Positions 5,108-64,000 of a stretch of DNA of 64,000 nucleotides are shown piece after piece. The position numbers were made by a program, and so were the translations under genes. The notes below the pieces were generated by a model. The model was given only the letters and a program-made list of their open reading frames with translations. It did no database searches and was not told where the DNA came from. Location: the NCBI GenBank assembly GCA_963739455.1, contig CAVUAK010000001.1, positions 448,001 to 512,000 on the forward strand. The letters are read 5' to 3'. The stretch's first letter is position 1, and every line of letters starts with the position of its first letter. This DNA comes from an uncultured Gemmatimonadales bacterium. GTDB taxonomy: Bacteria; Gemmatimonadota; Gemmatimonadetes; Gemmatimonadales; GWC2-71-9.

Positions 5108-5371
5108 CGGGTTTCCAGCCCTGTTCGGGCCCTCGGCATGCGCCGCTATCCACCCCTGGGGGCGGGCAGCGCCGTCGACAATATGGATTTCAGGGCGTTT
5201 TCGTGGCCTACTGGGGCCATATACGGATGAGCACCGCGCGCGTCACGCATGCTGCGCGACGGCTGCGATGGACTTCAGTCAGGATTCAGGCAGGAACGAT
5301 GAATCTGTGAGGTGGGACGCACCTGCCGGAAGAATCTGGCTGGGCGCCGGTCATGACATGGCTCGCGGTGG

Positions 5372-5854
5372 CTACTCCCTGACTGTAAGCGTTGGCGACG
5401 TCAGTTCGGTCAACGCATCCGAGGCGTCGGAAGCGAAATAGGACAGGGTATAGCGATAGCTCCCCGCATGCGACGGTACCACCCCGTACATGACCGACAC
5501 TTCTTCCCCGGGCGGGACGGTCGTCCCGATGTCGCGCCGGGCCGGGCCGCACGCGGGGCGCGGCACCACGCCCTCCGTCAGCAGGGCCCAGCCCCCTCCC
5601 ACCTGCTGCTTCAGGATCGAGAACCCGACCACAATGAAAAGGCCTGGGGTCTCCGCTACCGCGCACTTCGCCACAACAATGGCGGCGCTGGTGTTGTTCC
5701 GTACCAGCAGTTCGGTCGCATGTGGCACCTGCGTTACGACGTCGGTGGTCCTGTCGGCACGGAGCGAGACGCCCTCGGGGACTGCAGGGTCACCACCGCA
5801 CGCAACGACCCCCAGCATCACCCCGGTAAGGGCCATGCCAATTCGATTTCGCAC
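5372..5854 (-). CDS. Hypothetical lipoprotein
   Basis: AAGGAG RBS, signal peptide with VVAC-GG lipobox. Confidence 0.65.
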   Translation of the reverse strand: MRNRIGMALTGVMLGVVACGGDPAVPEGVSLRADRTTDVVTQVPHATELLVRNNTSAAIVVAKCAVAETPGLFIVVGFSILKQQVGGGWALLTEGVVPRPACGPARRDIGTTVPPGEEVSVMYGVVPSHAGSYRYTLSYFASDASDALTELTSPTLTVRE

Positions 5855-13141: not shown

Positions 13142-15175
13142 ATGACCTCCCTGCTCTGGGTGCTGGCCGCACTGGCGGGTGCGGGCGGATGGGCGGTGCT
13201 GGCGCTGGCTCGCGGAGAGTCGGTGAGCGCCGGGTGGCTCATCGCTGCTGCGGTCGGCACCTACGTCATCGCCTATCGCTACTACGGTCGGTTCCTGGCG
13301 ACGCGCGTCACCGGCCTCGATGACCGCCGGGCCACGCCCGCCGAGCGGCTGGGCAACGGCCGCGACTTCGTGCCCACAGGCCGGTGGGTGCTCTTCGGAC
13401 ATCACTTCGCCGCCATCGCGGGGGCGGGTCCCCTCGTGGGGCCGGTGCTGGCAGCCCAGTTCGGATACCTCCCCGGCACGCTGTGGATCGTGTTCGGTGT
13501 CGTGCTGGCCGGCGCGGTGCAGGACTACGTGATTCTCTTCGCCTCGATGCGGCGTGATGGGAAGTCGCTGGGCCGGATGGCGCGCGACGAGATTGGTCCG
13601 GTCACCGGCATCCTCGCGATGGTCGCCATCCTGGCGATCATGGTGATCCTGCTCGCGGTGCTGGCGCTGGTGGTGACCCGGTCACTCGCCGAGAGTCCCT
13701 GGGGCGTCTTCACCATTGCCTGCACCATCCCGATCGCGATCCTGATGGGATTCTGGATGGAGCGCTGGCGCCCCGGTCGCACGCTGGAGGCGTCGGCCAT
13801 TGGCGTGCTGCTGCTCATCGCAGCCCTGGTCGGAGGGCGGTGGGTGGCCGCGTCGCCCGTGCTCGCGCCGCTCTTTACCTGGCCGGCGAAGACCATCGCG
13901 TGGGGCATCATCGGCTATGGCTTCCTGGCCTCGGTGCTCCCGGTGTGGATGCTCCTCTGTCCCCGCGATTATCTCTCGACCTTCATGAAGATCGGGACCA
14001 TCACGCTGCTCGCGGTGGGGCTGATCGTGGTGCACCCGCCGCTGCAGATGCCGGCCGTCACCCGGTTCATCGATGGCAGCGGCCCCGTCTTCGCCGGCAG
14101 GCTCTTTCCCTTCGTGTTCATCACCATTGCCTGCGGCGCCATCAGCGGCTTTCACGCGCTCATTGCCTCAGGGACGACACCGAAAATGGTGCGCCGCGAG
14201 GGAGACGCCCGCCTCATCGGCTATGGCGCCATGCTCATGGAATCCTTCGTTGCGGTGATGGCCATGGCGGCCGCCGCGGCGCTCGATCCCGGCACCTACT
14301 TCGCCATGAACGTGCCCGTCGGCGCCCTTGGCGGTTCGGTCGAGTCGGCAGCTGCCGTCATCCAGGGATGGGGATTTGCCTTCTCGCCGGCAGATTTTCA
14401 CGCGCTGACGGCTTCTGTGGGAGAGCAGACGCTGCTCTCGCGCACCGGCGGTGCCGCCACGCTCGCCGTCGGCATCGCCCAGGTGTTCAGCAGCGTCTTC
14501 GGCAATGGATTGATGGGGCTCTGGTACCACTTCGCCATCATGTTCGAGGCACTGTTCATTCTCACCACCGTCGACGCCGGCACCCGGGTCGGGCGCTTCA
14601 TGCTGCAGGAGTTGCTGGGTCATGCCTATGCGCCACTGGGGCGCACGTCCTGGTATCCCAGCAGTGTGCTCGCGTCGGCAGTGGTCGTGGCGGGGTGGGG
14701 CTACTTCCTCATCCAGGGCGTCATCGACCCCAATGGCGGCATCAACTCGCTCTGGCCGCTCTTCGGCATCAGCAACCAGCTGCTGGCCACCATTGCCCTC
14801 TGCGTCGGGACAACCGTGATCGTGAAGGCAGGAAAGGCGCGGTTCGCCTGGGTCACGGTCCTCCCACTGCTGTGGGTGCTCACGGTGACGTTCACCGCGA
14901 GCTGGCAGAAGGTACTCTCGCCTGATCCCAGGCTCGGATTCCTGTCGCTGGCGGATCGCACCATGGCGAAGGTGAGCGCGGGAGAGATGGCGGCGGAGCT
15001 GGGACGCCAGGTGGCGTTCAATGCCCGGCTCGATGCACTGCTCACCACCATGTTCGTGGCGGTGACGCTGGTCGTCGTCCTGATGTCGCTGCGGGAGTGG
15101 GTGCTGGTGCTGCGCGGCCGGAAGCCGGCGCACGCGCAGGAAACCCCCTTCGTCGAGACAGCCTATGCTGGGTAG
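13142..15175 (+). CDS. cstA: Carbon starvation protein A family peptide/pyruvate transporter
   Basis: FGHHFAAIAGAGPLVGP, RDYLS, ITIACGAISGFH, LWPLFGISNQLLA. Confidence 0.95.
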   Translation: MTSLLWVLAALAGAGGWAVLALARGESVSAGWLIAAAVGTYVIAYRYYGRFLATRVTGLDDRRATPAERLGNGRDFVPTGRWVLFGHHFAAIAGAGPLVGPVLAAQFGYLPGTLWIVFGVVLAGAVQDYVILFASMRRDGKSLGRMARDEIGPVTGILAMVAILAIMVILLAVLALVVTRSLAESPWGVFTIACTIPIAILMGFWMERWRPGRTLEASAIGVLLLIAALVGGRWVAASPVLAPLFTWPAKTIAWGIIGYGFLASVLPVWMLLCPRDYLSTFMKIGTITLLAVGLIVVHPPLQMPAVTRFIDGSGPVFAGRLFPFVFITIACGAISGFHALIASGTTPKMVRREGDARLIGYGAMLMESFVAVMAMAAAAALDPGTYFAMNVPVGALGGSVESAAAVIQGWGFAFSPADFHALTASVGEQTLLSRTGGAATLAVGIAQVFSSVFGNGLMGLWYHFAIMFEALFILTTVDAGTRVGRFMLQELLGHAYAPLGRTSWYPSSVLASAVVVAGWGYFLIQGVIDPNGGINSLWPLFGISNQLLATIALCVGTTVIVKAGKARFAWVTVLPLLWVLTVTFTASWQKVLSPDPRLGFLSLADRTMAKVSAGEMAAELGRQVAFNARLDALLTTMFVAVTLVVVLMSLREWVLVLRGRKPAHAQETPFVETAYAG

Positions 15176-15434
15176 GTCGTCAGTCGGCAGTCAGCAGTCG
15201 GCAGACAGTCGTGAGCCAGCTGTCGACTCCCTGCCGACTGCCGACTCACGACTGACGACTATCGTGCGCACTGTCGCCAGGGCCATTCGCCAAGTCGCCG
15301 GCATGCCTGATTATCTCGCCTACGTCGAACACCAGCGCCACTATCATCCCGAGCGGCCACCACTTGGCGAGCGTGAGTTCTTTGCGGAATACCTGAGGGC
15401 CCGCTACGCCGACGGCCCCAACCGGTGCTGCTGA
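15165..15434 (+). CDS. YbdD/YjiX family small protein (CstA partner)
   Basis: GMPDYLAYVEH...HP...EFF...RY...RCC terminus directly after cstA. The N-terminal part is repeat-derived, so the start may be GTG 15264. Confidence 0.85.
   Translation: MLGRSSVGSQQSADSREPAVDSLPTADSRLTTIVRTVARAIRQVAGMPDYLAYVEHQRHYHPERPPLGEREFFAEYLRARYADGPNRCC
15176..15260. repeat. Inverted arrays of 7-mers (GTCGGCA)n ... (CTGCCGA)n forming a long imperfect hairpin
   Basis: gtcgtca-gtcggca-gtcagca-gtcggca pairs with ctgccga-ctgccga-ctcacga-ctgacga. Confidence 0.8.
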
Positions 15435-30128: not shown

Positions 30129-30164
30129 AAAAACGCCCGGGCAGGTGCCCGGGCGTTCTGTTTT
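30129..30164. terminator. Bidirectional intrinsic terminator
   Basis: AACGCCCGGGCA-GG-TGCCCGGGCGTT with A and T tracts, between convergent genes. Confidence 0.8.
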
Positions 30165-30181
30165 CGGCGCCAACAGCTGGA

Positions 30182-31270
30182 CTAGAGCAGGTTGTCCAGC
30201 GGGTCGAGAAGGTCCTCGAACAGGTCCAGTCCCTTGAGTACGGCGCCCCAGATCGCGGCGAGCGCTGCGTACTCCGGCGCGGTGAGCGCCGAGCCGTCGG
30301 GCTTGGTGATGGTGGCGACGTCACTGTTGTCATTGAGCGTTACGACGGCGAAGTCATCGCCATTGACGGTGGCGGTGAGCTCACCCACACCCTCCGTCAG
30401 GAGCCCGTCGATCCCGACATTGCCATGTGGACCGGTGAGCTTCACGTCGATATCGGCAAGCGCGGCTGCGGTGGAGACCTGTGTAATGCCGATGACGTAC
30501 TTGAGCGCGACATCGTGGGAAGGCGCATCAAGGCTGTAGTCAAACCCGATCGTCCCGTTCGCGACGTCCGAGTAGCTGTTCTTGAGGTTGAAGTTCACCT
30601 TGGTCGTGCCGTTCGTGACGAAGCCATCCACGACGGCCAGGCCGGTGGTCTCCGTAGCCGACCCCGATACGCCGTAGTCGACGTAGGTCACGCCGTCCGA
30701 CACGAGCTGCAACCGCACTGCATTGGTGTTCGTCGTGCTCTGGTCCAGCAGGTCCGCATAGCCGGCCTCCTGCAGCGGCTCGACCGGAACCCGCGTGATC
30801 GGGTTGACGGCATAGACGATGAAGCGCACGCCGTTCGCCGGCGCGCCGGTCCGCTCGCTCACCACGTAGGCATCAGTCTCCGTGCTGTACTCGAACGTCT
30901 TTCCCAGCACTTGGGCGGGAATGACGGCAAGCGCGACATGGCGCGCGATCCCGCCGTTGAAGCCCTCGACCGACCGCGCGATGCGCTGCGCCGACGCCGT
31001 CAGGCCAGTGGGATGTGATCCCAGCTTGATGGCGTTGATCGAGCTGCTCACCATCGGCGCACCGAAGACGGCGTCGATGCCACCGGCCGCCCAGGTCAGG
31101 CTCGCCATGGCGGGCGAATCGAAACTGGCGCCGACGGCGTTCATGTCCGCGCTGGTGCCTTCGGCGCTGAATGGTTCGCCGGAATTGTCGTCACCGCACG
31201 CAGCCAGTACGAGGGCGCATCCGGCGGCAATCCAGAGTCGGCGAAGCGGGTCGGGACGGAGTATGGACAT
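30182..31270 (-). CDS. Hypothetical beta-rich lipoprotein
   Basis: GGAGG RBS, lipobox LAAC-G. Confidence 0.8.
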   Translation of the reverse strand: MSILRPDPLRRLWIAAGCALVLAACGDDNSGEPFSAEGTSADMNAVGASFDSPAMASLTWAAGGIDAVFGAPMVSSSINAIKLGSHPTGLTASAQRIARSVEGFNGGIARHVALAVIPAQVLGKTFEYSTETDAYVVSERTGAPANGVRFIVYAVNPITRVPVEPLQEAGYADLLDQSTTNTNAVRLQLVSDGVTYVDYGVSGSATETTGLAVVDGFVTNGTTKVNFNLKNSYSDVANGTIGFDYSLDAPSHDVALKYVIGITQVSTAAALADIDVKLTGPHGNVGIDGLLTEGVGELTATVNGDDFAVVTLNDNSDVATITKPDGSALTAPEYAALAAIWGAVLKGLDLFEDLLDPLDNLL

Positions 31271-31510
31271 CTGCACCTCCAATAGGGACACATTCGTGCT
31301 GCAACGCCTTGCGGCGAGCAAAGTACAGCGCGCTATAAGTCTTTGTTTTGCTTATACTTAGACAACAGGTCAAGTTCGGTGATTCGAGCCCAGAACCGCT
31401 GGCAGGGGCAACGGATATGCCACCACGAAAGGCATTGTGACGGGGGTCCTGTTTGACGCTCGGTTGATCCCGCGGCATATCATGACCAACGACTCTTCCC
31501 TGACTTCGGC

Positions 31511-34500
31511 ATGCCCACACACTATCAGCTCCACTGCCTCGGAGAACCCGGCCTCTACACGCTGGGTGGCCGCCCGATCAAGCTGCGCACGCGCAAGCAA
31601 CTGGCGTTGCTCTGCTACCTGGCCATGGAGCCGCGTCCTCACACGCGCGATGCCCTGGCCGAGTTGCTGTGGCCGAAGGCGCCCCAGGGCGAGGCACGTC
31701 ATTCCCTCGCGACCGCGATGTCCGGACTCCGCGGCAAGCTCGGCAAGGAGATCTTCGAGTGCACCGTCGACCGGATCCGGCTCCGCCCCGGCGCGGTGAT
31801 ACTCGACGTCGACCGCCTGCTCAAGGGCGAGGTCCTGGGCACCGAGTTCGTTGAGCCGCTCGACGTCGACGGATTCCTGCAGGCCTGGGAAGTGCCCGAT
31901 GCGCTGCCCTTCGCGCACTGGCGCGACGCCGAGCATGCCCGTCTCCTCCCCAACGTGCGCGACGCCCTCGTCATCCTCATCGACCACTGCCGTCGCACCG
32001 GCGACTTCCGCCAGATCGAGACACTTGCCCTGAGGCTCCTCCGGTTCGACTCACTGAGCGAGGAGGGAATCCGGGCGCGGATGGAGGCGCGGGCCTTTGC
32101 CGGCGACCGACTCACGGCGCTTCGCCTGTTCAAGGACTGGAAGGCGGCGCTGGCACGGAGCCTTGGCGCCGCCCCGTCGCCGCTGCTCGAGGGCATGGCA
32201 CTCCGGCTGCGGCGCAGGGAGTGGGAACGTCCGGAGGCGCCCGATGTGCCGGCGGTGCGTACCGACCAGTGGCGTGGGCGGCCGTTCGTGGGTCGCGGCC
32301 GGGAGTACCGGCAGCTCTATGAGGCGTGGGAGGGAACGCAGCGCGGGGAGCCTCGCCACCGCCTGCTCCTGGGTGACTCAGGCATCGGCAAGAGCACGCT
32401 GGTGGAGCGCCTGACAACGGCGGCGGGGCTGGAGGGAGCCACCGTCGCTCGCGTGCAGTGCCACGACGTGGAGCGGGAGATTCCCTACGCCATGGTGACG
32501 GGGCTCATCTCGCAGCTGGTGGAGCGGCCGGGATCCTCTGCTGCACCGCCTGATGCGCTGGCAGAACTGGCGCAGACCATTCCGGCGGTTCGCCAGCGGT
32601 TCCCGGTGCTGCCGCCACCACTCGAGAGCCAGGGCGACGCCGCGCGCATCCGGTTCACCGAGGCGGCGCATGCGCTCATGGCGGCGGTGGCGGGAGAGCA
32701 CCCGGTCATCCTGGTCATCGATGACGGCCATCATGCCGACGATGTGAGCCTTGCAGTGCTGCACCGGGTCGTTCGCCTGGCTGACAAGCAGCAGATCCTG
32801 ATGCTCTTCGTCGCGCGCCCTGGTGAGCTGCAGCAGTCGCCGCAGGCCGCTCGCCTTCGCGACAATGGTGCATCACTCGGCATTCATCCACTCGAAATCC
32901 AGCCGCTGGAGGAGGACGATGCCCGGACGCTGCTCGACCTGCTCGTGGCGGAACTCCAGCTCACGCCGTCGGCCACTGTCCGTCGCGCGTTGCTCGGCGC
33001 GGCGGCGGGATTCCCGCTCGTGCTTGAACTCCTGGTGCGCGACTGGGCCCGTAGCGGGGCACAGTGCCTGGCACTGAGCCTGGATGCGGTAACGGCAGAT
33101 GCGGGACGGAAGAGCGAGCCGGATGAGGCATACCAGCTCCTGCTCGACCGGTTGGCAAGGACACTGGACCCTGGAACGCGGAACACGCTGCACGTGGCGG
33201 CGGTACTCGGGCCGAGGCTCAATGACTCGGCGTTGTATGCCCTGGCCGACCTGAGGGTCAGCGAGGTGATGACGGGCCTTACGACGCTGGTGCAGTACCG
33301 GATCCTGCGAGATGGTGGGGATCATCTCGAGTTCGCGAATGACCTGGTGCGGGCGCATGCGTACTACGCGGTGCCGGCGCCGATGCGGTTGCTGCTGCAC
33401 GGGTTGATTGCGGACGCATTGTTGGAGAGGGCGGCGAACGGAGACGACTCGCTAGGACTGGAGATCGCCTGGCATTGCATGCGGTGCGGAAGGAAGGAGG
33501 AGGCGACGAAAAACCTTCTCTCGGGTGCGCGCGCGTCCATCAAGCGCGGCGCAGTGCATGAAGCCGAACGAAGACTGGATTCTGGGCTGGTCTCCTTGGC
33601 AGGGGACGCACTTGGTGAGGCGCGCCTTCTCCTTGTGGAGTTGCTGCAAGAGCAGGGACGCTGGAAGGAGTCATCAACCTTACTCGCTTCATTCCCGGAA
33701 GAGCTGGCAACCGCGAGTGGCAAGTGCTTGGCAGGGATCGCGCTGCTCTACTCTGACGAGGCCTCCGAAGCTGACGAAATCTATCTAACAAGAGTCGCTC
33801 AATCGTGCATTGCAGACACCACTCTCGATCCGCAAACGCGGCTTCGGGCACTGCGTCTTGCTGGAGGCCTGGCTCTCACCACCCGGGAACCCTCCCTCCC
33901 AAGCCTCTTCTTGGAGACAGCGCGAGCGTCGGAGCGCACGAACTGGGACGATGACGAGAACTTGGAGTGGGATACGCAGATAGTCTACCTCACACACTAC
34001 ACGCATCGGAGAATTGAACAAAGCGAGATTACGTGTAGACATCTTGAGGCACTTGCCATACGTGCACGCGCGCATACTGTCGGCAATGCACGTTCGTTTA
34101 GGATTCTGGCTGGCTTGGGGTTGTGCCACCGCCGCGCCGGTCGCTACCCGCAGGCCATAGCGTCCTATGAGAACGCCCTTGAAATTCTCGCCCGCCTGGA
34201 GCGCACGCCTTCCCTAACGTTGACGCACGGTTCGCTTGCTTCATGCTATCGCGATTTAGGCGATATCGACGCACAACGAACACATGCTCTGCGCGGAGCG
34301 TCCCGTTCGCCCCCCGCCAATTGGTTTGACATTCAAGCCCTGTTCTGGGCGATCGAGGCCTGTCACCTCTTGGGCGACACGCGTTTAGCACGGGAGCTGG
34401 CGTTCTTTCTCGAATCCGCGCCCCGGTTGCCCATGCGAGCAAGGACGCTGCAAATGCTACTCATGTGTCGCGCTGACTTCGCTTGGCTTGAGGGTCGCAC

Positions 34501-34825
34501 AGTTGAAGCGCTGCAGCTCGGTCGGGCGGCGGTAGTTACCGTCACACCTGAGCAGATAGACCGCAGTAACGTCAGTACCATGGCGCGTTGGCTGGCCGTG
34601 TTGAGGGATCACAATGCCTGGGAGGTCGCGCTTGATGACTTTGTTGCCGGGGTCGAGGCGCTGCAGGCGGTGTGTTGGTGGGACGAGGTTGAGCGACTGC
34701 GCGCACTGGTCAAGCTTGGAGCGGAAGAAAAGTACCACCAGCTCGAGCTATCGAAGGCCGTACAATTTGTGCCCGTCAATATCGCAGCATACCTCAAGCG
34801 CTACGGATTGGGAGACCATACCTAA
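31511..34825 (+). CDS. SARP/BTAD-domain regulator with STAND-type AAA ATPase and C-terminal TPR-like region
   Basis: wHTH (LALLCYLA...RDALAELLWP), BTAD (LSEEGIRARM...GDRLTALRLF), FVGR..E, Walker A GDSGIGKS, Walker B VILVIDD, GFPL motif, TPR-like LGLCHRRAGRYPQAIASYENAL. Confidence 0.85.
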   Translation: MPTHYQLHCLGEPGLYTLGGRPIKLRTRKQLALLCYLAMEPRPHTRDALAELLWPKAPQGEARHSLATAMSGLRGKLGKEIFECTVDRIRLRPGAVILDVDRLLKGEVLGTEFVEPLDVDGFLQAWEVPDALPFAHWRDAEHARLLPNVRDALVILIDHCRRTGDFRQIETLALRLLRFDSLSEEGIRARMEARAFAGDRLTALRLFKDWKAALARSLGAAPSPLLEGMALRLRRREWERPEAPDVPAVRTDQWRGRPFVGRGREYRQLYEAWEGTQRGEPRHRLLLGDSGIGKSTLVERLTTAAGLEGATVARVQCHDVEREIPYAMVTGLISQLVERPGSSAAPPDALAELAQTIPAVRQRFPVLPPPLESQGDAARIRFTEAAHALMAAVAGEHPVILVIDDGHHADDVSLAVLHRVVRLADKQQILMLFVARPGELQQSPQAARLRDNGASLGIHPLEIQPLEEDDARTLLDLLVAELQLTPSATVRRALLGAAAGFPLVLELLVRDWARSGAQCLALSLDAVTADAGRKSEPDEAYQLLLDRLARTLDPGTRNTLHVAAVLGPRLNDSALYALADLRVSEVMTGLTTLVQYRILRDGGDHLEFANDLVRAHAYYAVPAPMRLLLHGLIADALLERAANGDDSLGLEIAWHCMRCGRKEEATKNLLSGARASIKRGAVHEAERRLDSGLVSLAGDALGEARLLLVELLQEQGRWKESSTLLASFPEELATASGKCLAGIALLYSDEASEADEIYLTRVAQSCIADTTLDPQTRLRALRLAGGLALTTREPSLPSLFLETARASERTNWDDDENLEWDTQIVYLTHYTHRRIEQSEITCRHLEALAIRARAHTVGNARSFRILAGLGLCHRRAGRYPQAIASYENALEILARLERTPSLTLTHGSLASCYRDLGDIDAQRTHALRGASRSPPANWFDIQALFWAIEACHLLGDTRLARELAFFLESAPRLPMRARTLQMLLMCRADFAWLEGRTVEALQLGRAAVVTVTPEQIDRSNVSTMARWLAVLRDHNAWEVALDDFVAGVEALQAVCWWDEVERLRALVKLGAEEKYHQLELSKAVQFVPVNIAAYLKRYGLGDHT

Positions 34826-34828
34826 CCG

Positions 34829-36220
34829 CTACGCACGCTTCGTTTTCCAGAACGCACCTGACGGTCGCGCGACACGGAGCGAACGCGGAGCAAGCGGCAC
34901 CGTTTCCTCGATAGCGCCTGACGGCCCTGCGATAAGGCGGCGCACCGCCACCGAGGACACTGCGACATCGACGATTGCCGGGTCAAACTGGGTACCACGG
35001 CACTTCTGAAGCTCAGCAATGACGATCTCTAGACTGAGACGCTTTCGATATGGTCGATCCGTCGTCATGGCATCAATGGTGTCCGCAATCAAGATGATTC
35101 GGGACGCCAGCGGAATCCCCGAGCTAGTGATCCCATCGGGATAGCCCTGACCATCCCACCTCTCATGATGATGCCGTACAGCATGTTGAATACTGCCGCG
35201 AAACTTGGAAATAATGCCAACCAATTCGGCGCTCTTTGCCGCGTGGGTCTGCATTAGTGCGGTCTCGTCATCGGAAAGTCGCGACTCCTTACGCAGAAGG
35301 GGGGCAAATTCCTCATGAATCTTCCCCACGTCGTGCAGCAACGCTGCCGTTTCGACCTCCTCGATCTGTTGCGCGGAAAGCTGTAGCTCGAGCGCAATCG
35401 CCCGCGACAGTTCGCGGACCCGGAGAGAATGGCCAGACGTGTACGGATCGCGCGCCTCGATCGCCTTCACCATGACTTGGAGGAGTTCCTGCCCACTTTC
35501 CTGGAGATTCTGGAAGAGGGCATATACATGGCGAAGGGCGACGATAGGCAACACAATCGCGATGAGGCCGACTGGCCCATATCCGATGCTGTCAACGCGG
35601 ACATAGAACCAAGACACAAACATCGAGATCACGCTCGCGCCGAGATCATAACCCAACATCCCACGCGCGTTTAGATGCCAGACCTCACGAAACGGTCGAT
35701 CAGAACCAAGTGACACTGCACCCGCAACGAGTAATTTATTCACGATCACATACACGCTGGCGAGCACGAAGAAGAGAAATAGGTCGCGCTGCACGTCCGC
35801 TGCCGCGGCAGGACCAACCAACAAGAACGACGGCGGAAACGACCCGCCAAGCAAGGTCTGATACACCAGCGCACCCAGCGCCACGGACAGCGCTCGTTGC
35901 GCAGGATTGAAAACCACCCGCTCCAGAGCAAGACCCCTACTCAGCGACGTCGCCAGGGATGCGGCCGCAGCAATTAGACCGCCCCAGAACCCTCCGAAGA
36001 GTGCCCCTGCCGAAAGGTGGACAACGAATGACGTGGAGCCTTGGGCCGAAACCCTGAGTTCGACCGGAGAGCGGTCCAGAAGGAACGACACGCCGATTAG
36101 GCTCGCGAGTGCGAGGACACCCGGAAAAGGCTGGCGAACGTACCAAGCACCGGCCATTGCTGCGGCCGCGCCAAGCACCACCAGAATTACGTAGATGTCT
36201 ACTGCCTTGAATCGGCGCAT
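34829..36220 (-). CDS. Membrane-anchored HD-GYP c-di-GMP phosphodiesterase
   Basis: N-terminal multi-TM sensor region, then AIEARDPYTSGHSLRV, LLHDVGK, HHERWDGQGYPDG, ADTIDAMTTDRPYR. Confidence 0.92.
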   Translation of the reverse strand: MRRFKAVDIYVILVVLGAAAAMAGAWYVRQPFPGVLALASLIGVSFLLDRSPVELRVSAQGSTSFVVHLSAGALFGGFWGGLIAAAASLATSLSRGLALERVVFNPAQRALSVALGALVYQTLLGGSFPPSFLLVGPAAAADVQRDLFLFFVLASVYVIVNKLLVAGAVSLGSDRPFREVWHLNARGMLGYDLGASVISMFVSWFYVRVDSIGYGPVGLIAIVLPIVALRHVYALFQNLQESGQELLQVMVKAIEARDPYTSGHSLRVRELSRAIALELQLSAQQIEEVETAALLHDVGKIHEEFAPLLRKESRLSDDETALMQTHAAKSAELVGIISKFRGSIQHAVRHHHERWDGQGYPDGITSSGIPLASRIILIADTIDAMTTDRPYRKRLSLEIVIAELQKCRGTQFDPAIVDVAVSSVAVRRLIAGPSGAIEETVPLAPRSLRVARPSGAFWKTKRA

Positions 36221-36262
36221 GATCCCTCGTGAAACAGAACTGGGGGCCAACCAGTCGACACG

Positions 36263-36343
36263 CTATTTCCAGTCGTCGCCTGATGTAAGCAGCGAAAGCA
36301 ACCAGGCCACGATGTTCACTGAATCGGCCTTGCGCGTCGTCAT
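36263..36343 (-). CDS. 26-aa small peptide (MTTRKADSVNIVAWLLSLLTSGDDWK)
   Basis: Not in the ORF track. Strong RBS GGAGGTG 7 nt before the ATG, basic N-terminus, hydrophobic core, GxxW-K end, 42 nt before the HD-GYP start. Confidence 0.7.
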   Translation of the reverse strand: MTTRKADSVNIVAWLLSLLTSGDDWK

Positions 36344-36580
36344 TGAGCGTCACCTCCCTCCGAGACCACTTCGTGTTGCACCTTCATGAAGTGGCGAGCC
36401 CCGCTATGGCTCTCCGTGACGCTCCGCTTTTTTGACCCGCTAATCTCCGCTATTTCCTGCTCGCGTAGACCGGGGCCCCCTTAAATCCGTTTGAATTTCC
36501 CTGTCATGCGGCGCCAGGTTGCGGACCCGGCCCCGCCGAACACTTCACATTCCAGACATACAGCCAGAATTCCGGTCGCG

Positions 36581-37342
36581 CTACGAGGGCCGCCTCAGGT
36601 TGGCCCACCGGTTCGTCGCATCCATCACCGCGAACACCGCCGCCCGCTCCGCGCTCTCGCGGATCTCGGCCGTGCCCGTCAGCAGCACCGTCTCGCGGCC
36701 GCTCAACCCCTGCGCCACGATGAACACGAACTCGCGATCGAACTCCTCCACCATCCGGACACCCTCGAGCGCCAGGGAGTGGTCGCCCAGCAGCCGATCC
36801 ACCGACGAGAGCGCGGCCTTTGCCGCCGCCTCGACCCTGCCCTTGATGTTGTCCATCGCCTCTTCCTCGGCGTGCTCCACCTGCCCGTCCATCGAGAGCG
36901 ATACCTGCACCGTCACCCGGTGCGGCCGGCGACCCGCCAGCACCGTGACGTTCTCGAAGAGCATGGCTCGCTGGAGCGAACGGTCACGCACCGCCGTCGA
37001 CTCGAGCGCTTCCAGCGGCTTCACGTCCGCCGTCTGCGCAATGCTGATCTTGCGATGATCGATCTTGAGCCCGAGGTGCGCCAGCAGCGCCGACTCGATG
37101 TTCCGCACCAGCTGCTTCGGCTGGAGCCCGGCCTGGGCCAGCACGTGCACCTCGCTCACCTCACCCAGCGGCGTCGTGACGACCCGCGCGGAGAGAATCC
37201 CCTCGAGACTGGTGAGGAGGTTCTCGGCACGGCGCACACCCCACGGATCCTGCACCTCGGGCGACGGCGTTGGCCGCGGGCCTGGGCTCGAGCCGGCGCC
37301 GGGCGCACCCGACATCGGCTGACGGAACGGAGATCCGGTCAC
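36581..37342 (-). CDS. Conserved hypothetical protein (EVHVLA...PKQLVRNIESAL...IDHRKISIAQ family)
   Basis: GTGA overlap with the cyclase stop, host-like codon usage, two compact alpha/beta domains. Confidence 0.8.
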   Translation of the reverse strand: MTGSPFRQPMSGAPGAGSSPGPRPTPSPEVQDPWGVRRAENLLTSLEGILSARVVTTPLGEVSEVHVLAQAGLQPKQLVRNIESALLAHLGLKIDHRKISIAQTADVKPLEALESTAVRDRSLQRAMLFENVTVLAGRRPHRVTVQVSLSMDGQVEHAEEEAMDNIKGRVEAAAKAALSSVDRLLGDHSLALEGVRMVEEFDREFVFIVAQGLSGRETVLLTGTAEIRESAERAAVFAVMDATNRWANLRRPS

Positions 37343-39066
37343 GTGCGTGTCACCTCGTGCTGCCGAGAACGCTGCGCCTCGGCGATGAGATTGCGTCCCG
37401 CCATCTTCGCGCGATAGAGCGCGCGGTCTGCCGCCACCAGCAGGTCACCATCCGCCGGCCGGTGCGGATCGAACTCCGCCACGCCGATGCTCACGGTGAC
37501 CAGTCCTGCCGGGTAGCCCAATCGGCGACCCACACCCTCGATGCCCGCCCGCAGCGCCTCGGCCACTCGCGTGGCCCCCGGAAGGTCGGTTCGCGTCAGG
37601 ATCACCACGAACTCGTCGCCACCGTACCGCGACGCCACGTCCGACGCACGAACCGCTGCCCGGATCTCTGCCGCCACCGCGCGGAGGATGTCGTTCCCCG
37701 CCTCGTGGCCATGCCGGTCGTTCACCTGCTTGAACGAGTCGAGATCGATGAACAGGACCGCGAAGGCTTCGTCACTTCGCTTGCTGCGCTCGATCTCGTA
37801 CTGCAGGCGCTCCTGGAGCACCCGATAGGTCGCGAGCCCCGTCAGCACATCGACCGCTGCCGCCCGCACCGCTTCGTCCGCCCGGCGCTCCTCGTGCGGC
37901 GGGCACTGCTTCAGGCTGGCCCGTCCCGATACCGCCGAGCGCGCGAACTGGAGGCAGGTGCCGTAGCCGCATGCACCGCAATCCCAGGCCTTGCCGTTCG
38001 ACGCCGTCCCGATCGCCGCGAGCACCGCGTTCACTGCGGCGGCATCGGCCGGTGCCGGCCGCGGCTTGATCTCGAACGTGGCGCCGATGCTCATCGTGAG
38101 CGCGCGGTCCACTACCGGACTCCGGCTCCGCGGCGGCTCGGCGCTCGCCACGAGTGCCCGCCGCCAGTAGAGCTCTTCCTTCGGGCCCGAGAGCGGGTGG
38201 TCGAGCGCACCCTCGTTCGAGAGGATGTCCACGAACCCCAGCTCGAGCCGGTCCGTCGTGACCGCGCGGGCGAGCGCCGGCAGCGCATCGAGCCCGCGAA
38301 CGATCTTGAACCGGCTGCTCGCCTGCCGCGCTTCCTCGAGCATCGCGAGGGGCATCCCGCCCGCCGCGCTCAGGTGGCGCCGGCGCTCCTCGGGGATGCG
38401 CTGGAAAAACGTCGGCTGCGTCAGGGCGCTCACACTGCGCATGCGCAGGAGCTGCTCCAGGTCCGAGAACGTCACCGCCGCATCCACCTCAGGACACGAG
38501 GGCGGCGCCACATGCCCCGCGTACACCACCGGCAGCGATGCGCCGTAACGCGCTCGCAGGTAGCGCGTCTCGGCGATCGTCGGCGTTGCTACGGGCGCCA
38601 GGTACGGCACCAACTCGGGATACTGCGTCCGGACCGTCTCCACCACCACCGGATCCGTCGACCGGACCATCGTGCCCCACGGCTCGTCTTCCCAGAGCCG
38701 CAGGTACTCCGTCGCCACCAGTTCGTCGCCGATGACTCCCCGGGTCACCACCCGGAACCCGGCTGCGTAGCAGGCGTTGATCACCTGCTCCGGCGTTGCT
38801 GGATAGAAATGAGCCGCCGACTCGGGGCTCAGGATCAGGGCGGCCGTTCCCTGACCTGCAAGCTCCAGCGCTCTCCCCAGCTCCCCGGACACCTTGACCG
38901 CCTGGTGAGGGCAGGCCGGAACGCATTCTCCGCAGCGGATGCAAGACTCGTCCACTACGCGCAAAAGCGGTGCCTCCCCAACGACTTCGATCGCATCGGA
39001 CGGGCAGATGCGAACGCAAGCGAGGCAAGCGACGCAGAGTTCAGCGTCGATCAGGAAGCTCAGCAA
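37339..39066 (-). CDS. Diguanylate cyclase with 2x[4Fe-4S] ferredoxin, degenerate [FeFe]-hydrogenase-like domain and FeS domain
   Basis: CVACLACVRICP, CIRCGECVPACP, DCGACGYGTC...C, DLDSFKQVND, RASD I-site, RYGGDEF. TTG start assumed (frame open to 39180). Confidence 0.88.
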   Translation of the reverse strand: MLSFLIDAELCVACLACVRICPSDAIEVVGEAPLLRVVDESCIRCGECVPACPHQAVKVSGELGRALELAGQGTAALILSPESAAHFYPATPEQVINACYAAGFRVVTRGVIGDELVATEYLRLWEDEPWGTMVRSTDPVVVETVRTQYPELVPYLAPVATPTIAETRYLRARYGASLPVVYAGHVAPPSCPEVDAAVTFSDLEQLLRMRSVSALTQPTFFQRIPEERRRHLSAAGGMPLAMLEEARQASSRFKIVRGLDALPALARAVTTDRLELGFVDILSNEGALDHPLSGPKEELYWRRALVASAEPPRSRSPVVDRALTMSIGATFEIKPRPAPADAAAVNAVLAAIGTASNGKAWDCGACGYGTCLQFARSAVSGRASLKQCPPHEERRADEAVRAAAVDVLTGLATYRVLQERLQYEIERSKRSDEAFAVLFIDLDSFKQVNDRHGHEAGNDILRAVAAEIRAAVRASDVASRYGGDEFVVILTRTDLPGATRVAEALRAGIEGVGRRLGYPAGLVTVSIGVAEFDPHRPADGDLLVAADRALYRAKMAGRNLIAEAQRSRQHEVTRT

Positions 39067-39193
39067 GGACTTTCCCGTGTTGGGAGGGAGGGAACTGCGC
39101 TCAGAATATCGGCATGGTGGTTCGCTAGTGTCAAGACTCGGCGGAGTGCAAAATATTGACAGTCGCTCGTTTAGCCGCATTCTGAGAGGCTAC

Positions 39194-40705
39194 TCAGGAG
39201 TCAAGATTATAGGCTCTTATTTTACGATACAGGGTCCGTTCCCCGATGCCCAATTGCTCCGCAGCGCGTCTCCTATTTCCACGGAAATCCTTGAGGGCAG
39301 CGGCGATAGCGGCCTTTTCGACGTCGGCCATGGTCATGCCCGCGCGGTAGACGATCTCGTCCGGCTCCGGCTCGTCGATGGGGGTGACCGAAATCTCGCC
39401 AATCTCAGGTCGTGGTGTCAGTTCGATCATGCGAGCAGGCGCTCGCTCCTGGCCGTCAAGACGCCGACGAAGCTCCTCCACCTGAAGCTTGAGCTCCATC
39501 AGGCTCCGGAGCAGGAACTCGAACTCCTGCCCCCCAACCCCAGCCGAGTGGCTGATTCGAGCCGGGAGGAGGCTTCCAGGCCCTTCCAGCACGTCTCGTG
39601 GGATGTCGCTGGCACGGATCTCGGCCCCGGGGGCCAGGACCACCATCGATTCGATGAGATTCCGGAGCTGCCTGATGTTTCCAGGCCACGGTGCACCGAC
39701 GAGCACATCCATCGCTTCCGGGGTGATTCCCCGGAAATGGCGGTCGTGGGCCTTGGAAAACTCGCGGATGAACCGCCGGACCAGCAGGGGGATGTCGCCC
39801 CGGCGCTCGCGAAGCGGGGGAAGGTAGATGTTGAGGACGTTGAGCCGGTAGAACAGGTCCTCCCGGAACTCGCCCACCGAGACCGCATCGCGGATGTTCC
39901 GGTTGGTCGCTGCCAGCACGCGAACGTCGACCTTGATCGCCTGGCTGCCGCCCACCCGGTAGAAGGTCCGGGTCTCCAGCACCCGCAGCAGCTTCACCTG
40001 GATGGCGGGCGATGTCTCGCCGATCTCGTCGAGGAAGAGCGTGCCGCCGTCCGCCAGTTCGAATCGACCGAGCCGGCGCTCTGCCGCGCCGGTGAACGAG
40101 CCCTTCTCGTGACCGAACAGCTCGCTCTCGAGCAGTGTCTCGGGTAGCGCCCCGCAGTTGACCGCGATGAACGCCTTGCCGCGCCGGGACGAGAGGTCGT
40201 GGAGGGCCTTGGCGACGAGTTCCTTGCCGGTGCCCGACTCGCCCTGGATCAGCACGGTGCTCGACACCGGCGCCATCTGCTCGATGCGCACCAGCACTTC
40301 CTGGATCGGCGCGCTCTCGCCCACGATGCCGGTGCGCTCCTGCAGGCGGCGCCGCTCGATGAGCCGCTGCGCCACCGCCACGACTTCGTCGGGCCGCGCC
40401 GGCTTGGTCATCACGCCGGTGACGCCGAGCTGGGCCGCCTTCTCCGGTCCCTCGGAATCGGTGGACTCCAGCAGTGCCAGCGTCGATACCTCGCGGTCGT
40501 GCGCGTAGGCCACCAGGTGCCGCGCCGGCGGCTCGTAGAGCGCACCGGTGAGGATGATCAGCACCGGATGCTCCCGGCGCACGGCACCCCTCGCATCGTC
40601 GAGGGCCGCAATCGTGTTCGTGGCAAAGCCCGCGGCCTCGAATGCGGCGTTGAGCGGCACCGCCGTGCCGAGGTCGTCGAGCGTGATGAGAACCTTGTCC
40701 GCCAT
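39194..40705 (-). CDS. sigma54-dependent enhancer-binding protein with atypical receiver domain
   Basis: [50 protein letters not shown], Fis-type HTH. Confidence 0.92.
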
Positions 40706-41190
40706 CAGTGATCCACTCCACTTCCCTTGAGCAGTGCCACCGCGTGCTCCAGCAGGTCGTCCAGCACCGCGAGCCCATCGCGCACGCCGCCGGTGCTGCC
40801 GGGCAGGTTCACGATCAGCGCCCGCCCGCGCACGCCGGAAACGCCGCGTGACAGCGCGGCGCGATGAAAGCGGGGATAGACCGCGTGACGCAGTCGCCTC
40901 GGCGATGCCGGGCGCTTCCTTGTCGAGGACGGCACGCGTGGCCTCGGGAGTCACGTCGCGCAGCCGTGAGGCCGGTTCCACCGGTGGTCAGGATGACATC
41001 GACGCGCCCACCGTCCGCCCAGCGCACGAGGATGGCGCCGATGGTCGCCGTCTCGTCGGGAACGAGCGCACGCTCGGCGATGGCGTAGCCCTTCTCGGTG
41101 GCCCACGCTGCGATCGCGTCGCCGGAGCCATCAACCCGTTCGCCGCGCGCGCCCTGCATCGCTGATGGTCAGAATTCCGAGACGAATCAC
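40705..41190 (-). CDS. mogA: MogA/MoaB molybdenum cofactor biosynthesis protein (three apparent frameshifts)
   Basis: Pieces in successive frames: IRLGILTISD, D.SG, VPDE, DVILTTGGTGL, RDVTPEAT, PGIAEA, AALSRG, IVNLPGS. Confidence 0.8.
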
Positions 41191-41222
41191 TTGCCGCCCT
41201 GCCGCCTTGTCATCCTGCCGCC
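41190..41222. repeat. Degenerate tandem 8-mer (CTGCCGCC) array spanning the gcvT stop
   Basis: cttgccgc-cctgccgc-cttgtcat-cctgccgc. Confidence 0.6.
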
Positions 41223-42326
41223 TTCTTCACCGACCCATTCTTCCAGAACGGCCGCGCCACGACCTCGGCAGGAATGCGCTCGCCGCGGCACTCGATCTCG
41301 AATTGGGTACCGACCTTCGCGGCTTCCGCGGGCAGGAACGTCGTGCCGATGGCCGCGCCGAGCGACGGGCTCTGCGTGCCGCTCCGCACGAGGTCGACCT
41401 GCTTGTCCTGGTACCACACCGGGTAGCCCTGCCGGGCGATGCCGCGCCCGAGCAGCTTGAAGCCGACCATCTTCCGGGTGACGCCGCGCGCCTTCTGCGC
41501 CGTGAGCGCATCGGCGCCAGTGAAGGGCGCGCCCTTGTTGAGCTTCACGATCCAGGCGAGTCCCGCCTCCAGCGGCGTGATGTTGCGGTCGATTTCATGG
41601 CCGTAGAGCGCGTAGCCCACCTCGAGCCGCAGCGAGTCGCGAGCACCGAGCCCGATCGGCAGCGCGCCTGCCTTCAGCAGCGCTTCCCAGATCGCTGGCG
41701 TGTCCTTCCACCGGCAGTAGAGCTCGAAGCCGTCCTCGCCGGTGTAGCCGGTGCGGGAGATGAAGCACTGGCATCCCGCGATCTTGCCGTTGTCGTGGTG
41801 GTAGTAGGCGATCGTCGGCCAATGGCAGGTCGGCGAGCGGCTGGAGCGTCTTCTCTGCGTCGGGGCCCTGGATGGCAATGAGCCCCACGTCGCTCGAGAT
41901 GTCCTTGAGCCGGACGTTGGCACCGCCCTTCAGGTCGACGATGTGTTCCCACGCCGCCGCGACGTTGGCCGCGTTCACGACGATCATGATCTTGTCGTCG
42001 AAGCGGTAGACGGTGCAGTCGTCGATGAACGTGCCCTCGCGCGTCAGGATCCCCGAGTACTGCACCCCGCCCGCCTCGAGCGCCCCGACGTCGTTGCACG
42101 TGATCCGGTTGACGAACGCGTTGCGATCGGGGCCGGTGACCTCGAACTCGCCCATGTGCGAGACGTCGAAGATTCCCACCTTGGTGCGCACCGCCTGGTG
42201 CTCGGCCATGATGCCGGACGGATACTGCACCGGCATTTCCCAGCCGGCGTAGGGCACCATCTTGCCGCCCAGGCGGCGGTGGATGTCGTAGAGGGGAGTG
42301 CGGAGGAGTTCAGTCATTGTGGTCAC
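41210..42326 (-). CDS. gcvT: Glycine cleavage system aminomethyltransferase T (frameshift near 41820)
   Basis: [28 protein letters not shown], then [23 protein letters not shown]. Confidence 0.92.
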
Positions 42327-63362: not shown

Positions 63363-63576
63363 TTTGGTTCGAAAAAGCGCATCATGTTACGGCAAAACAA
63401 CTTAGGGCAATACTCAAGAGCCGCTGACCCCAAGGCTCACCTCTGTAAGTCTGGAAAACTGCAAGAGCCAAGTTCTACCCGGCGCCCTGCTAGGCCCAAC
63501 TTCGTACGGACCAACAATTGCACTTGTGTTCGAAAAGCTGGCACGACCTATTCATTCATCGCGCACCCTGAACTCC

Positions 63577-64000
63577 ATGGTCCTGACCTTGTCTGTCCGA
63601 AAGCCGGTGCGCTGGCTGCTCACGACCGCCGTCGCCCTGCTCGCCATCAGTGCCAGCGCAACGAGCCTGCCAAACATCTTCGTACAGGATGACATTGCGG
63701 TCGTCCGGAACAACGACGAGAACCATAGTCTCAGCGCTCCGTGGATGGCCTTTTCCCGTCCGTACTGGCCCAAACCGTTCAGTCCCGACCTCTACCGGCC
63801 CCTCCAGTCACTTGCACTCGCAACACAGTGGGTGGCCGGCGGTGGCAGGCCTGCACTCTTCCGCATTACGAGCATCCTGCTTTATACAACGTCCGCTGTA
63901 GCCTTTTTATGGTTGGCCGGCATGCTGCTGCCGATCGAGGCGGCATGGGTCGCTGCGGCTCTGTTCGCCGTGCATCCGCTTCACGTCGAAGCCGTCGCGG
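63577..64000 (+). CDS. TMTC-like GT-C membrane glycosyltransferase, partial
   Basis: Not in the ORF track. MVLTLSVRKP...NIFVQDD...DLYRPL...AALFAVHPLHVEAVA, open to the window end. Confidence 0.8.
   Translation, partial: MVLTLSVRKPVRWLLTTAVALLAISASATSLPNIFVQDDIAVVRNNDENHSLSAPWMAFSRPYWPKPFSPDLYRPLQSLALATQWVAGGGRPALFRITSILLYTTSAVAFLWLAGMLLPIEAAWVAAALFAVHPLHVEAVA

Follow-up and report, generated by a model that had tools for sequence, protein, structure and literature searches.

A conserved unit of peptide gene, structured leader RNA and membrane HD-GYP protein in Gemmatimonadota and other phyla as a candidate kin-specific signalling system

The window, by which we mean the whole 64,000-nucleotide stretch analysed here (assembly GCA_963739455.1, contig CAVUAK010000001.1, positions 448,001 to 512,000), comes from an uncultured Gemmatimonadales bacterium and carries on its minus strand a four-part unit that is conserved across phyla. 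The unit consists of the gene of a protein that we call IDHRK (36581..37342), a structured leader RNA (36344..36480), the gene of a 26-residue peptide (36263..36343), and the gene of a predicted membrane phosphodiesterase of cyclic di-GMP (c-di-GMP) that joins a MASE9-type sensor region to an HD-GYP domain (34829..36220). The phosphodiesterase gene faces a convergent plus-strand gene for a STAND ATPase regulator that ends in a TPR superhelix, and the MASE9 and TPR regions hypervary in parallel. We tentatively read the peptide as an allele-specific ligand of MASE9, and probably also of the TPR superhelix, in kin-specific c-di-GMP signalling, a reading that we hold with somewhat less than even confidence. 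An initial annotation of the window had described a six-part peptide-controlled c-di-GMP system. The open reading frames (ORFs) and domains that it named were all found in place by ORF listing and Pfam; a core of four parts held up, and the single six-gene unit did not.

A four-part unit conserved across phyla

Among 41 Gemmatimonadales genomes, 28 gave a locus with an orthologue of the MASE9-HD-GYP gene. A small ORF lies directly 5' of the HD-GYP gene in all 28, nearly always after GGAGGTGACGC; 26 of these ORFs stop at 16-30 residues, and the other two run on, probably through indels. For other phyla, 185,579 genomes were searched with a profile of IDHRK homologues from outside Gemmatimonadota, and the best 80 of at least 589 confirmed matches were kept, with loci of Bacillota, Coriobacteriia, Armatimonadota, Anaerolineae and others. 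The HD-GYP gene comes next in 66 of the 73 evaluable loci, a hydrophobic small ORF led by a Shine-Dalgarno-type (SD) ribosome-binding site in 65, and both in 64, whereas the same small-ORF test was passed by 18 of 712 control windows. Counted over 77 loci of other phyla, such an ORF follows the IDHRK gene in 69. Small-ORF calling at homologous loci was a check that the initial annotation had proposed, and its peptide gene emerges as real, conserved and tied to a membrane HD-GYP protein in several phyla. In six of six IDHRK loci without a peptide (L105, L113, L114, L118, L121 and L124), the leader motif and the HD-GYP gene are likewise missing, and three of five tested genomes with a peptide-less IDHRK locus hold a second, complete module elsewhere. 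In the window's own genome, IDHRK, the peptide, the MASE9 part and the iron-sulfur (FeS) part of the neighbouring FeS-GGDEF gene are each single-copy; no paralogue of the peptide or leader was found there, and a strict leader pattern matched one site only. No description of the module, and none of DUF5317, which follows the HD-GYP gene in 56 of the 80 loci outside Gemmatimonadota, was found in the literature searched.

The window peptide, MTTRKADSVNIVAWLLSLLTSGDDWK, is encoded on the minus strand behind a full SD (GGAGGT). It has a charged N-terminal end, an 11-residue hydrophobic core, a glycine and a tail with tryptophan; the pattern kept across phyla at the protein level is a hydrophobic core, Gly, and an aromatic, basic or Trp tail. 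Trp stands among the last five residues in 37 of 38 distinct Gemmatimonadota peptides. Outside this phylum the usual ending is LAGGA plus about four residues, and an [AS]GG[AS] motif occurs in 48 of 67 distinct peptides of other phyla and 0 of the 38. Most other-phyla peptides resemble single membrane helices, with 60 of 65 reaching the membrane-segment cut-off used (KD19 ≥ 1.6); 15 of 37 Gemmatimonadota peptides reach it, and the window peptide stays below (0.75). Cys is absent from the window peptide and present in three of 37 Gemmatimonadota peptides. In 11 Desulfosporosinus loci, residues 1-20 are almost fixed (0-0.9 bits) and the last four are variable (2.1, 1.8, 0.8 and 1.5 bits), and Gemmatimonadota tails differ around the Trp between relatives. 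A 212-nucleotide read contig from one freshwater RNA run spans 36261-36453 with one mismatch and one gap, approximately the leader-plus-peptide unit, and is a hint only because such contigs reveal neither ends nor strand. Seven RNA runs matched 5-6% of words, and the pieces in the four examined came mostly from relatives.

The leader and IDHRK, which the initial annotation listed and left unexplained, are the most conserved parts of the locus. The leader, already proposed as structured by the initial annotation, is sequence-conserved among Gemmatimonadales and folds well (z −3.0; 0 of 200 shuffles as good). On the minus strand it comprises helix P1 (36418-36424 paired with 36345-36351), repeated NAG-CG-R units, hairpin P2 with a UAGCG loop, and P3, which covers the SD at 36352-36357. 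Over 22 Gemmatimonadales leaders, 88% of cells in this three-helix junction are paired and seven pairs changed on both sides, the UAGCG hairpin holding six of these; P1 is nearly invariant and therefore uninformative on covariation. All 108 leaders contain two or more NAG-CG-R units (median 4, against a mean of 0.45 after shuffling), and this set was not anchored on that motif; the NAG triplets recur with a 5-nucleotide period. An outer helix, P0, pairs the 5' end of the leader (36462-36480) with the bases immediately after the peptide stop (36242..36262) and encloses the peptide gene. The P0 arms covary across phyla, with self pairing at 27.7 versus 18.0 ± 3.6 for cross pairing in 57 diverse leaders, where the own partner was best in 22 and in the top three in 32. 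Self pairing lies above the 95th percentile of cross pairs in 63 of 108 leaders, seven of 115 having been dropped because their flanks were missing. Covariation thus supports the structure of the leader, and its function we infer. Rfam gave no match at gathering score over the leader, either in the window or in 10 other-phyla loci, which makes the leader an RNA structure missing from Rfam; a sub-threshold Leu_leader match at 30129-30211 is unrelated to it. The leader was not found in the literature searched, including one supplement of PMC8632094, and the RNA motif set of PMC11109978 (50 genomes) could include it. As a terminator P0 was rejected, given a U-rich tract after it in only 50 of 108 leaders and a terminator scan at chance (5 versus 4.5).

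IDHRK (minus strand) matched no Pfam or NCBIfam family and was delimited by its modelled fold and conservation. The model, with a predicted local distance difference test (pLDDT) of 89.5, has two domains. The N-domain (31-105) adopts a KH-II, CDF C-terminal or BolA-like fold (Z 7.6-9.6), which is a common one. The C-domain (125-248) resembles the regulatory domain of LeuA and citramalate synthase (CMS), with a Foldseek E of 2.8e-6 to LeuA and, against LiCMS, a VIA Z of 9.9 and a root-mean-square deviation of 3.0 with 110 of 115 aligned. Proteins with tandem double-stranded RNA-binding domains are among the weaker Foldseek matches. The IDHRK profile gave 0 matches against PDB sequences and only unnamed clusters in the Atlas. 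From its position, fold and joint loss with the leader, IDHRK is a candidate leader-binding regulator, which would suggest what a large unannotated family (1544 clusters at 50% identity) may do. A stand-alone paralogue of the C-domain lies elsewhere in the window's genome (L183; G000:C3:76339-76812), between aminotransferase-like and lytic-transglycosylase-like genes, and second C-domain matches recur in many Gemmatimonadota genomes.

The HD-GYP phosphodiesterase, matched by HD_5 on the minus strand, appears intact by its motifs. The metal-ligand motifs HxxRV, HD-GK, HHE, GYP and DxxDA are all present in the window, and D258, T261, H264, H296, D297, H326, H351, H352, E353, Y360 and D380 are invariant over 64 HD-GYP rows. 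Its guanine motif RPYR fits the Rxx(K/R) rule for guanine-type HD-GYP domains (10.1101/600031, excerpt). The sensor region (codons 1-235; 35516..36220, minus strand) scores 22.7 bits against MASE9 (PF20972; cut-off 24.3), 24.2 on rescoring and 24.7 with neighbours; homologue L095 scores 41.7 bits. MASE9 is described as eight segments, some of them short. As a correction to the multi-transmembrane HD-GYP protein of the initial annotation, just four segments in its N-terminus reach KD19 ≥ 1.6. The MASE9 ligand is predicted to bind within the membrane (10.1101/2021.11.05.467447, excerpt).

A co-fold of the peptide with the membrane domain, another check proposed by the initial annotation, was made with a congener's 30-residue peptide and its own MASE9 and scored 0.48, against 0.00 for the best of three controls; runs agreed in at least 87% of contacts, with partner pLDDT of at least 55. 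In calibration, 116 of 157 solved pairs attained the mark, as did 2 of 215 mismatched ones. The support for this congener pair is weak because the mark was reached at 0.60 or below by just 18 of the 157 solved pairs but by both mismatches. The TPR superhelix, the last approximately 440 residues of the STAND regulator (33503..34825, plus strand), was delimited by its model (pLDDT 91.7), fold search and divergence. It gives generic TPR matches, MalT domain III among them, and the top TM-score listed is that of a peptide-bound Rap (0.52/0.63).

Parallel hypervariation of two sensor domains

Compared with four congeners, the flanking genes have a DNA identity of 0.80-0.95, and the stretch from about 33500, the TPR start, to 36300, in mid-peptide, only 0.46-0.78. 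The boundary of divergence thus lies within the peptide gene. Leader identity between congeners stays at about 1.0, and the leader plus the 5' half of the peptide ORF are near 100% identical. Differences at 4-fold sites reach 0.59-0.87 in this cassette, compared with 0.18-0.43 in the IDHRK, FeS-GGDEF, sigma54 and moxR genes, and are intermediate in the N-part of the STAND gene (0.40-0.60) and a lipoprotein-like gene beside it (0.49-0.60); three of the four congeners compared carry indel errors. Five cassette chunks show 4-fold-site differences of 0.71-0.79, and 0.71 is reached by 1 of 119 other window chunks, which include some wrong-frame ORFs. That sole other saturated chunk, at 63526-64000, lies beside pilin-like genes.

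The same pattern was found in 21 complete loci of six genera, after the exclusion of 8 of 29 that were broken or incomplete. In every one of the 15 within-genus pairs, identity is 42-80% for MASE9 and 25-51% for TPR, versus 84-98% for the HD domain, 68-100% for IDHRK and 79-97% for FeS-GGDEF. Both sensors are poor in G and C at third codon positions (GC3), TPR with at most 0.70 in 21 of 21 loci and MASE9 with at most 0.71 in 20 of 21. The HD domain that separates them often has a high GC3, which leaves two low-GC3 islands; it keeps a high GC3 in two genera, so the TPR region is not merely carried along. Median identities in Desulfosporosinus (11 of 16 loci usable) are 0.61 for MASE9, 0.83 for HD, 0.82 for IDHRK and 0.70 for DUF5317. 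The initial annotation had proposed peptide-reading sensors, and both of its candidates, the sensor of the HD-GYP protein (here MASE9) and the TPR domain, prove hypervariable in six genera. By analogy, such fast parallel divergence suggests kin-specific signalling. One pair of loci (L059 and L060) suggests that a sensor was recently exchanged: IDHRK is 97% identical, MASE9 at most 53%, and a single residue of the peptide tail has changed.

Class-level additions and competing explanations

The FeS-GGDEF gene (37339..39180, minus strand) encodes, by Pfam, a ferredoxin (Fer4), a degenerate [FeFe]-hydrogenase-like (Fe_hyd_lg_C), an FeS and a GGDEF domain; its true start is probably near 39063, because orthologues align from there. 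Two ferredoxin motifs and one FeS motif account for its cysteines, apart from only two more in the hydrogenase-like part. The product is a non-canonical cyclase. The GG(D/E)EF motif and the RxxD I-site of the proposed FeS cyclase are present (RASD...YGGDEF), and plain c-di-GMP synthesis is the part of that proposal that was not supported. The guanine-reading position, nine after the conserved Asn, is Asn in 41 of 41 rows from 39 genomes, including the window's, and c-di-GMP synthesis is therefore not assured. It fits neither the canonical Asp nor the Ser/Thr of Hypr enzymes at the base-reading position (PMC6456294, excerpt).

The STAND regulator (31511..34825, plus strand; 1104 residues) was recognized by Pfam and synteny and combines a winged helix-turn-helix (wHTH; weak Trans_reg_C match), BTAD, a STAND ATPase (AAA_16, Walker A GDSGIGKS) and TPR in an AfsR-like architecture. 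Its stop codon lies 3 nucleotides from that of the convergent HD-GYP gene, as first described. The window's genome has at least seven further BTAD proteins, mostly without a STAND domain. Upstream, a divergent lipoprotein-like gene of no family (30182-31276), 63-69% identical in congeners, is a possible target of the regulator. Another order has a different lipoprotein-like gene in the same place, and the window's gene showed no homology to the genes upstream of STAND there.

Synteny separates these two genes from the sigma54 activator (39194..40705, minus strand; sigma54 AAA and HTH_8 by Pfam). In 20 larger Gemmatimonadales loci, adjacent sigma54 was found in 19, FeS-GGDEF in 12 and STAND in 18 (two cut by contig ends), and argF, gcvT, hslU and moxR are equally constant there. 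Other orders of the class keep FeS-GGDEF, IDHRK, peptide and HD-GYP in that order, convergent with STAND, between different flanks and without sigma54 (L164, L165, L167); in L166 the block also lacks FeS, and sigma54 is missing from the block across L163-L167. Among the matches listed from 151 genomes, the FeS sensor lies immediately upstream of IDHRK in 72 of 77, and all 36 best STAND matches that share a contig with the core are convergent, 26 others lying on different contigs. The FeS sensor is absent from two families that retain the core (0 of 31 and 0 of 2 genomes), and STAND and the sigma54 activator are each found in 0 of 80 loci of other phyla. From these counts by order, class and phylum, STAND and FeS-GGDEF are class-level additions that travel with the core across orders and are absent from other phyla, and the sigma54 activator is judged a syntenic bystander. 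Their linkage to the system was thus upheld, its necessity was not, and the activator drops out. The pseudo-receiver of the activator was correctly called, with Thr or Ser replacing the phospho-Asp in the window and 11 legible orthologues of 17 rows. No −24/−12-like site precedes the leader or operon, and one match at 31422 is at chance level.

Next to the activator gene, gcvT is broken into two frames and a molybdopterin adenylyltransferase gene is frameshifted (40700-42326); relatives align across these breaks, so they are probably assembly indels. Elsewhere in the window, an approximately 85-nucleotide element at 15175-15260, multi-copy in both orientations in a relative (G008), probably represents a palindromic repeat or a small mobile element, and the ORF or ORFs at 3950-5441, without counterpart in three congeners, may be an insertion. 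A C39 peptidase-ABC transporter of the window's genome is indel-broken, on a separate contig and without link to the module. In other phyla, Bacillota and Coriobacteriia modules have hpf/raiA (37 of 80) and secA (31 of 80) on either side, a raiA RNA motif lies 5' of the module in L088 and L093, and several loci carry a tandem second HD-GYP. In the deepest Gemmatimonadota class sampled, a gene for a B12-binding radical SAM protein takes the place of STAND directly behind HD-GYP in five of five loci read (L169-L173); it could encode a modifier of the Trp peptide or reflect plain synteny.

In the mechanism that we propose, the RNA fold would place the peptide gene inside the outer helix and, in Gemmatimonadales, pair its ribosome-binding site. 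IDHRK, judging by fold and co-occurrence, may bind the NAG-CG units, with a small ligand at its LeuA-type domain gating binding, and would thereby set the amounts of peptide and phosphodiesterase made. The peptide would insert in the membrane through its hydrophobic core, with the Trp-bearing tail either staying tethered or being cut off. This tail may act as the allele-specific ligand of MASE9 and switch HD-GYP activity, and with it the c-di-GMP level, as the weak co-fold hints. In the Gemmatimonadota class, two genes would have been added and retained, one for a STAND regulator whose TPR superhelix probably recognizes this tail as well, the other for a GGDEF protein with FeS sensing and an uncertain product; here the linkage is observed and the functions are putative. 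A bolder version seems doubtful to us: kin-specific Trp-tail pheromones in at least five phyla, sensed directly by a one-component c-di-GMP phosphodiesterase in the membrane and a second time inside the cell by STAND-TPR in diderm Gemmatimonadetes, with synthesis gated by an undescribed RNA-binding protein that senses a ligand and acts on an equally undescribed RNA, and with FeS-GGDEF making a dinucleotide other than c-di-GMP.

Several observations weigh against the peptide as a kin-specific ligand. The parts of the core occur apart: two Moorella genomes have a stand-alone IDHRK and no MASE9 match, MASE9 genes without a peptide exist (L229, L230), and L231 is a leader-peptide-HD-GYP locus without IDHRK immediately upstream. 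Some lineages show clear pairing of the peptide's ribosome-binding site, but the signal across phyla is weak (own partner ranked first in 5 of 35). The window's locus contains no gene dedicated to peptide processing or export, and no AgrB (PF04647) was found in the window's genome, which is 84% complete. DUF5317 was found in 0 of 151 Gemmatimonadota genomes (IDHRK found in 117) and was rejected as a peptide-processing partner in this phylum. Tail and MASE9 distances do not correlate in the 11 Desulfosporosinus loci (Mantel r 0.04; −0.19 given IDHRK), a set with too few independent pairs, and MASE9 and TPR show a modest residual correlation (r 0.29; reached in 26 of 2000 permutations) among relatives that are not independent. 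BTAD-TPR paralogues also change fast, with best congener matches of 32-44%, and a control for TPR speed failed because the sole STAND paralogue with orthologues lacks TPR.

Some of these points favour a cell-autonomous role, in which the peptide is an accessory subunit of the membrane phosphodiesterase of the MgrB/SafA type and carries no intercellular message, the sensors are loosely constrained or sense varied outside ligands, and STAND is merely linked. The helix-like peptides of other phyla (60 of 65), the weak co-fold of a full-length peptide with MASE9, the missing export gene and AgrB, the lack of tail-MASE9 covariation and the absence of STAND from 80 of 80 other-phyla loci all agree with it. 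It leaves unexplained, however, why saturated synonymous sites and low GC3 are limited to two sensor domains in six genera and why a fixed peptide leader carries a variable four-residue tail, and the membrane-helix cut is passed by only 15 of 37 Gemmatimonadota peptides, not including the window's (0.75). We consider this role somewhat unlikely. It is improbable that the small ORF acts in cis as a leader peptide, its translation opening or closing P0 and so controlling HD-GYP expression, with a product that has no target. The ORF does lie wholly within the conserved P0 (27.7 versus 18.0 ± 3.6), and leader and ORF 5' half are near 100% identical in congeners, but the protein-level pattern is retained over phyla with no single-codon run, a U-rich tract follows P0 in 50 of 108 leaders only, and P0 in the window stops short of the HD-GYP SD.

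A cytoplasmic target, either the LeuA-type ligand domain of IDHRK or TPR in place of MASE9, appears quite improbable. The C-domain fold binds hydrophobic amino acids in LeuA/CMS, and peptide-bound Rap gives the best listed TPR TM-score (0.52/0.63); however, congeners with different peptide tails have IDHRK proteins of 97-100% identity, other phyla lack the TPR gene and the TPR fold matches are generic. The circuit of the initial annotation, with all six genes including the sigma54 activator joining redox sensing and peptide communication to c-di-GMP, is very improbable: gene order is kept in Gemmatimonadales (19, 18 and 12 of 20 for sigma54, STAND and FeS-GGDEF), but argF, gcvT, hslU and moxR are equally conserved there, sigma54 is missing from the block in L163-L167, no −24/−12-like site lies at the leader or operon, and two families lack FeS-GGDEF. 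The ligand reading gives the orphan MASE9 sensor a candidate ligand in the peptide, and natural sets of cognate and non-cognate alleles make it directly testable. Should the signal travel from cell to cell, peptide-based quorum or kin sensing would be wired directly to second-messenger turnover, an abundant, little-studied Gram-negative soil phylum would show pherotype-like diversity, and a bacterial STAND regulator would gain a peptide ligand.

Comparison with known systems

Like the MASE9-HD-GYP enzymes TM1467 of Thermotoga maritima and HdgA of Streptomyces venezuelae, the window protein joins a membrane domain to an intact HD-GYP domain. HdgA is membrane-bound and weakly expressed, gave no phenotype, and its activating signal is presumed missing (PMC6205966, excerpt). 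Excerpts of the texts on these two enzymes mention no peptide, leader RNA or upstream regulator, and the MASE9 score here is borderline (10.1101/2021.11.05.467447, PMC6205966). The FeS-GGDEF protein shares with the Hypr enzyme GacA a GGDEF rather than GGEEF motif and a non-Asp residue nine after the conserved Asn (Asn339/Ser348 in GacA; PMC6456294, excerpt). It differs in carrying Asn instead of Ser/Thr, and its partner HD-GYP is of the guanine type, RxxR and not RxxQ/N (10.1101/600031, excerpt). The Clostridioides difficile CD1980.2 family also comprises small membrane-associated, c-di-GMP-linked proteins after an RNA element, but these have 58 residues, a class I riboswitch and no MASE9-HD-GYP and form a separate family (PMC13724677, excerpt).

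The 5-nucleotide-period NAG triplets beside a protein with an amino-acid-binding-type fold recall TRAP and HutP. TRAP and HutP are RNA-binding attenuation proteins; IDHRK has KH-II-like and LeuA regulatory folds instead, the CG spacer is fixed, and RNA binding is putative. A 20-30-residue hydrophobic product encoded next to a membrane sensor resembles MgrB and SafA, small membrane modulators of PhoQ. Here the putative target is a phosphodiesterase, and a conserved RNA, a regulator and allele-like variation are present. RRNPP systems (Rap, Rgg, NprR, PlcR, PrgX, ComR) likewise have a TPR superhelix encoded close to the gene of a short hydrophobic peptide. RRNPP receptors join an HTH or the Rap N-domain straight to TPR without a STAND ATPase. 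The window's regulator, whose TPR domain the initial annotation had compared with those of RRNPP receptors, contains that ATPase and falls outside the group; it is a wHTH-BTAD-STAND-TPR protein of the AfsR/MalT type and is missing from the module in other phyla.

The variable C-terminal part of the peptide and the polymorphic block over this part and the sensor resemble ComQXPA and Agr, a likeness and not membership. ComX has a Trp near its C-terminal end; Agr pairs AgrB with a Cys-bearing AgrD, and ComQXP has an adjacent ComQ prenyltransferase and the ComP kinase. The comQ gene keeps 65-70% nucleotide identity between pherotype clusters (PMC4408185, excerpt). Unlike those systems, the window's module has no ComQ, AgrB, histidine kinase or Cys ring, and its putative receptor is a one-component phosphodiesterase. 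Its host is diderm, a structured RNA surrounds the peptide gene, and the flanks are IDHRK and HD-GYP.

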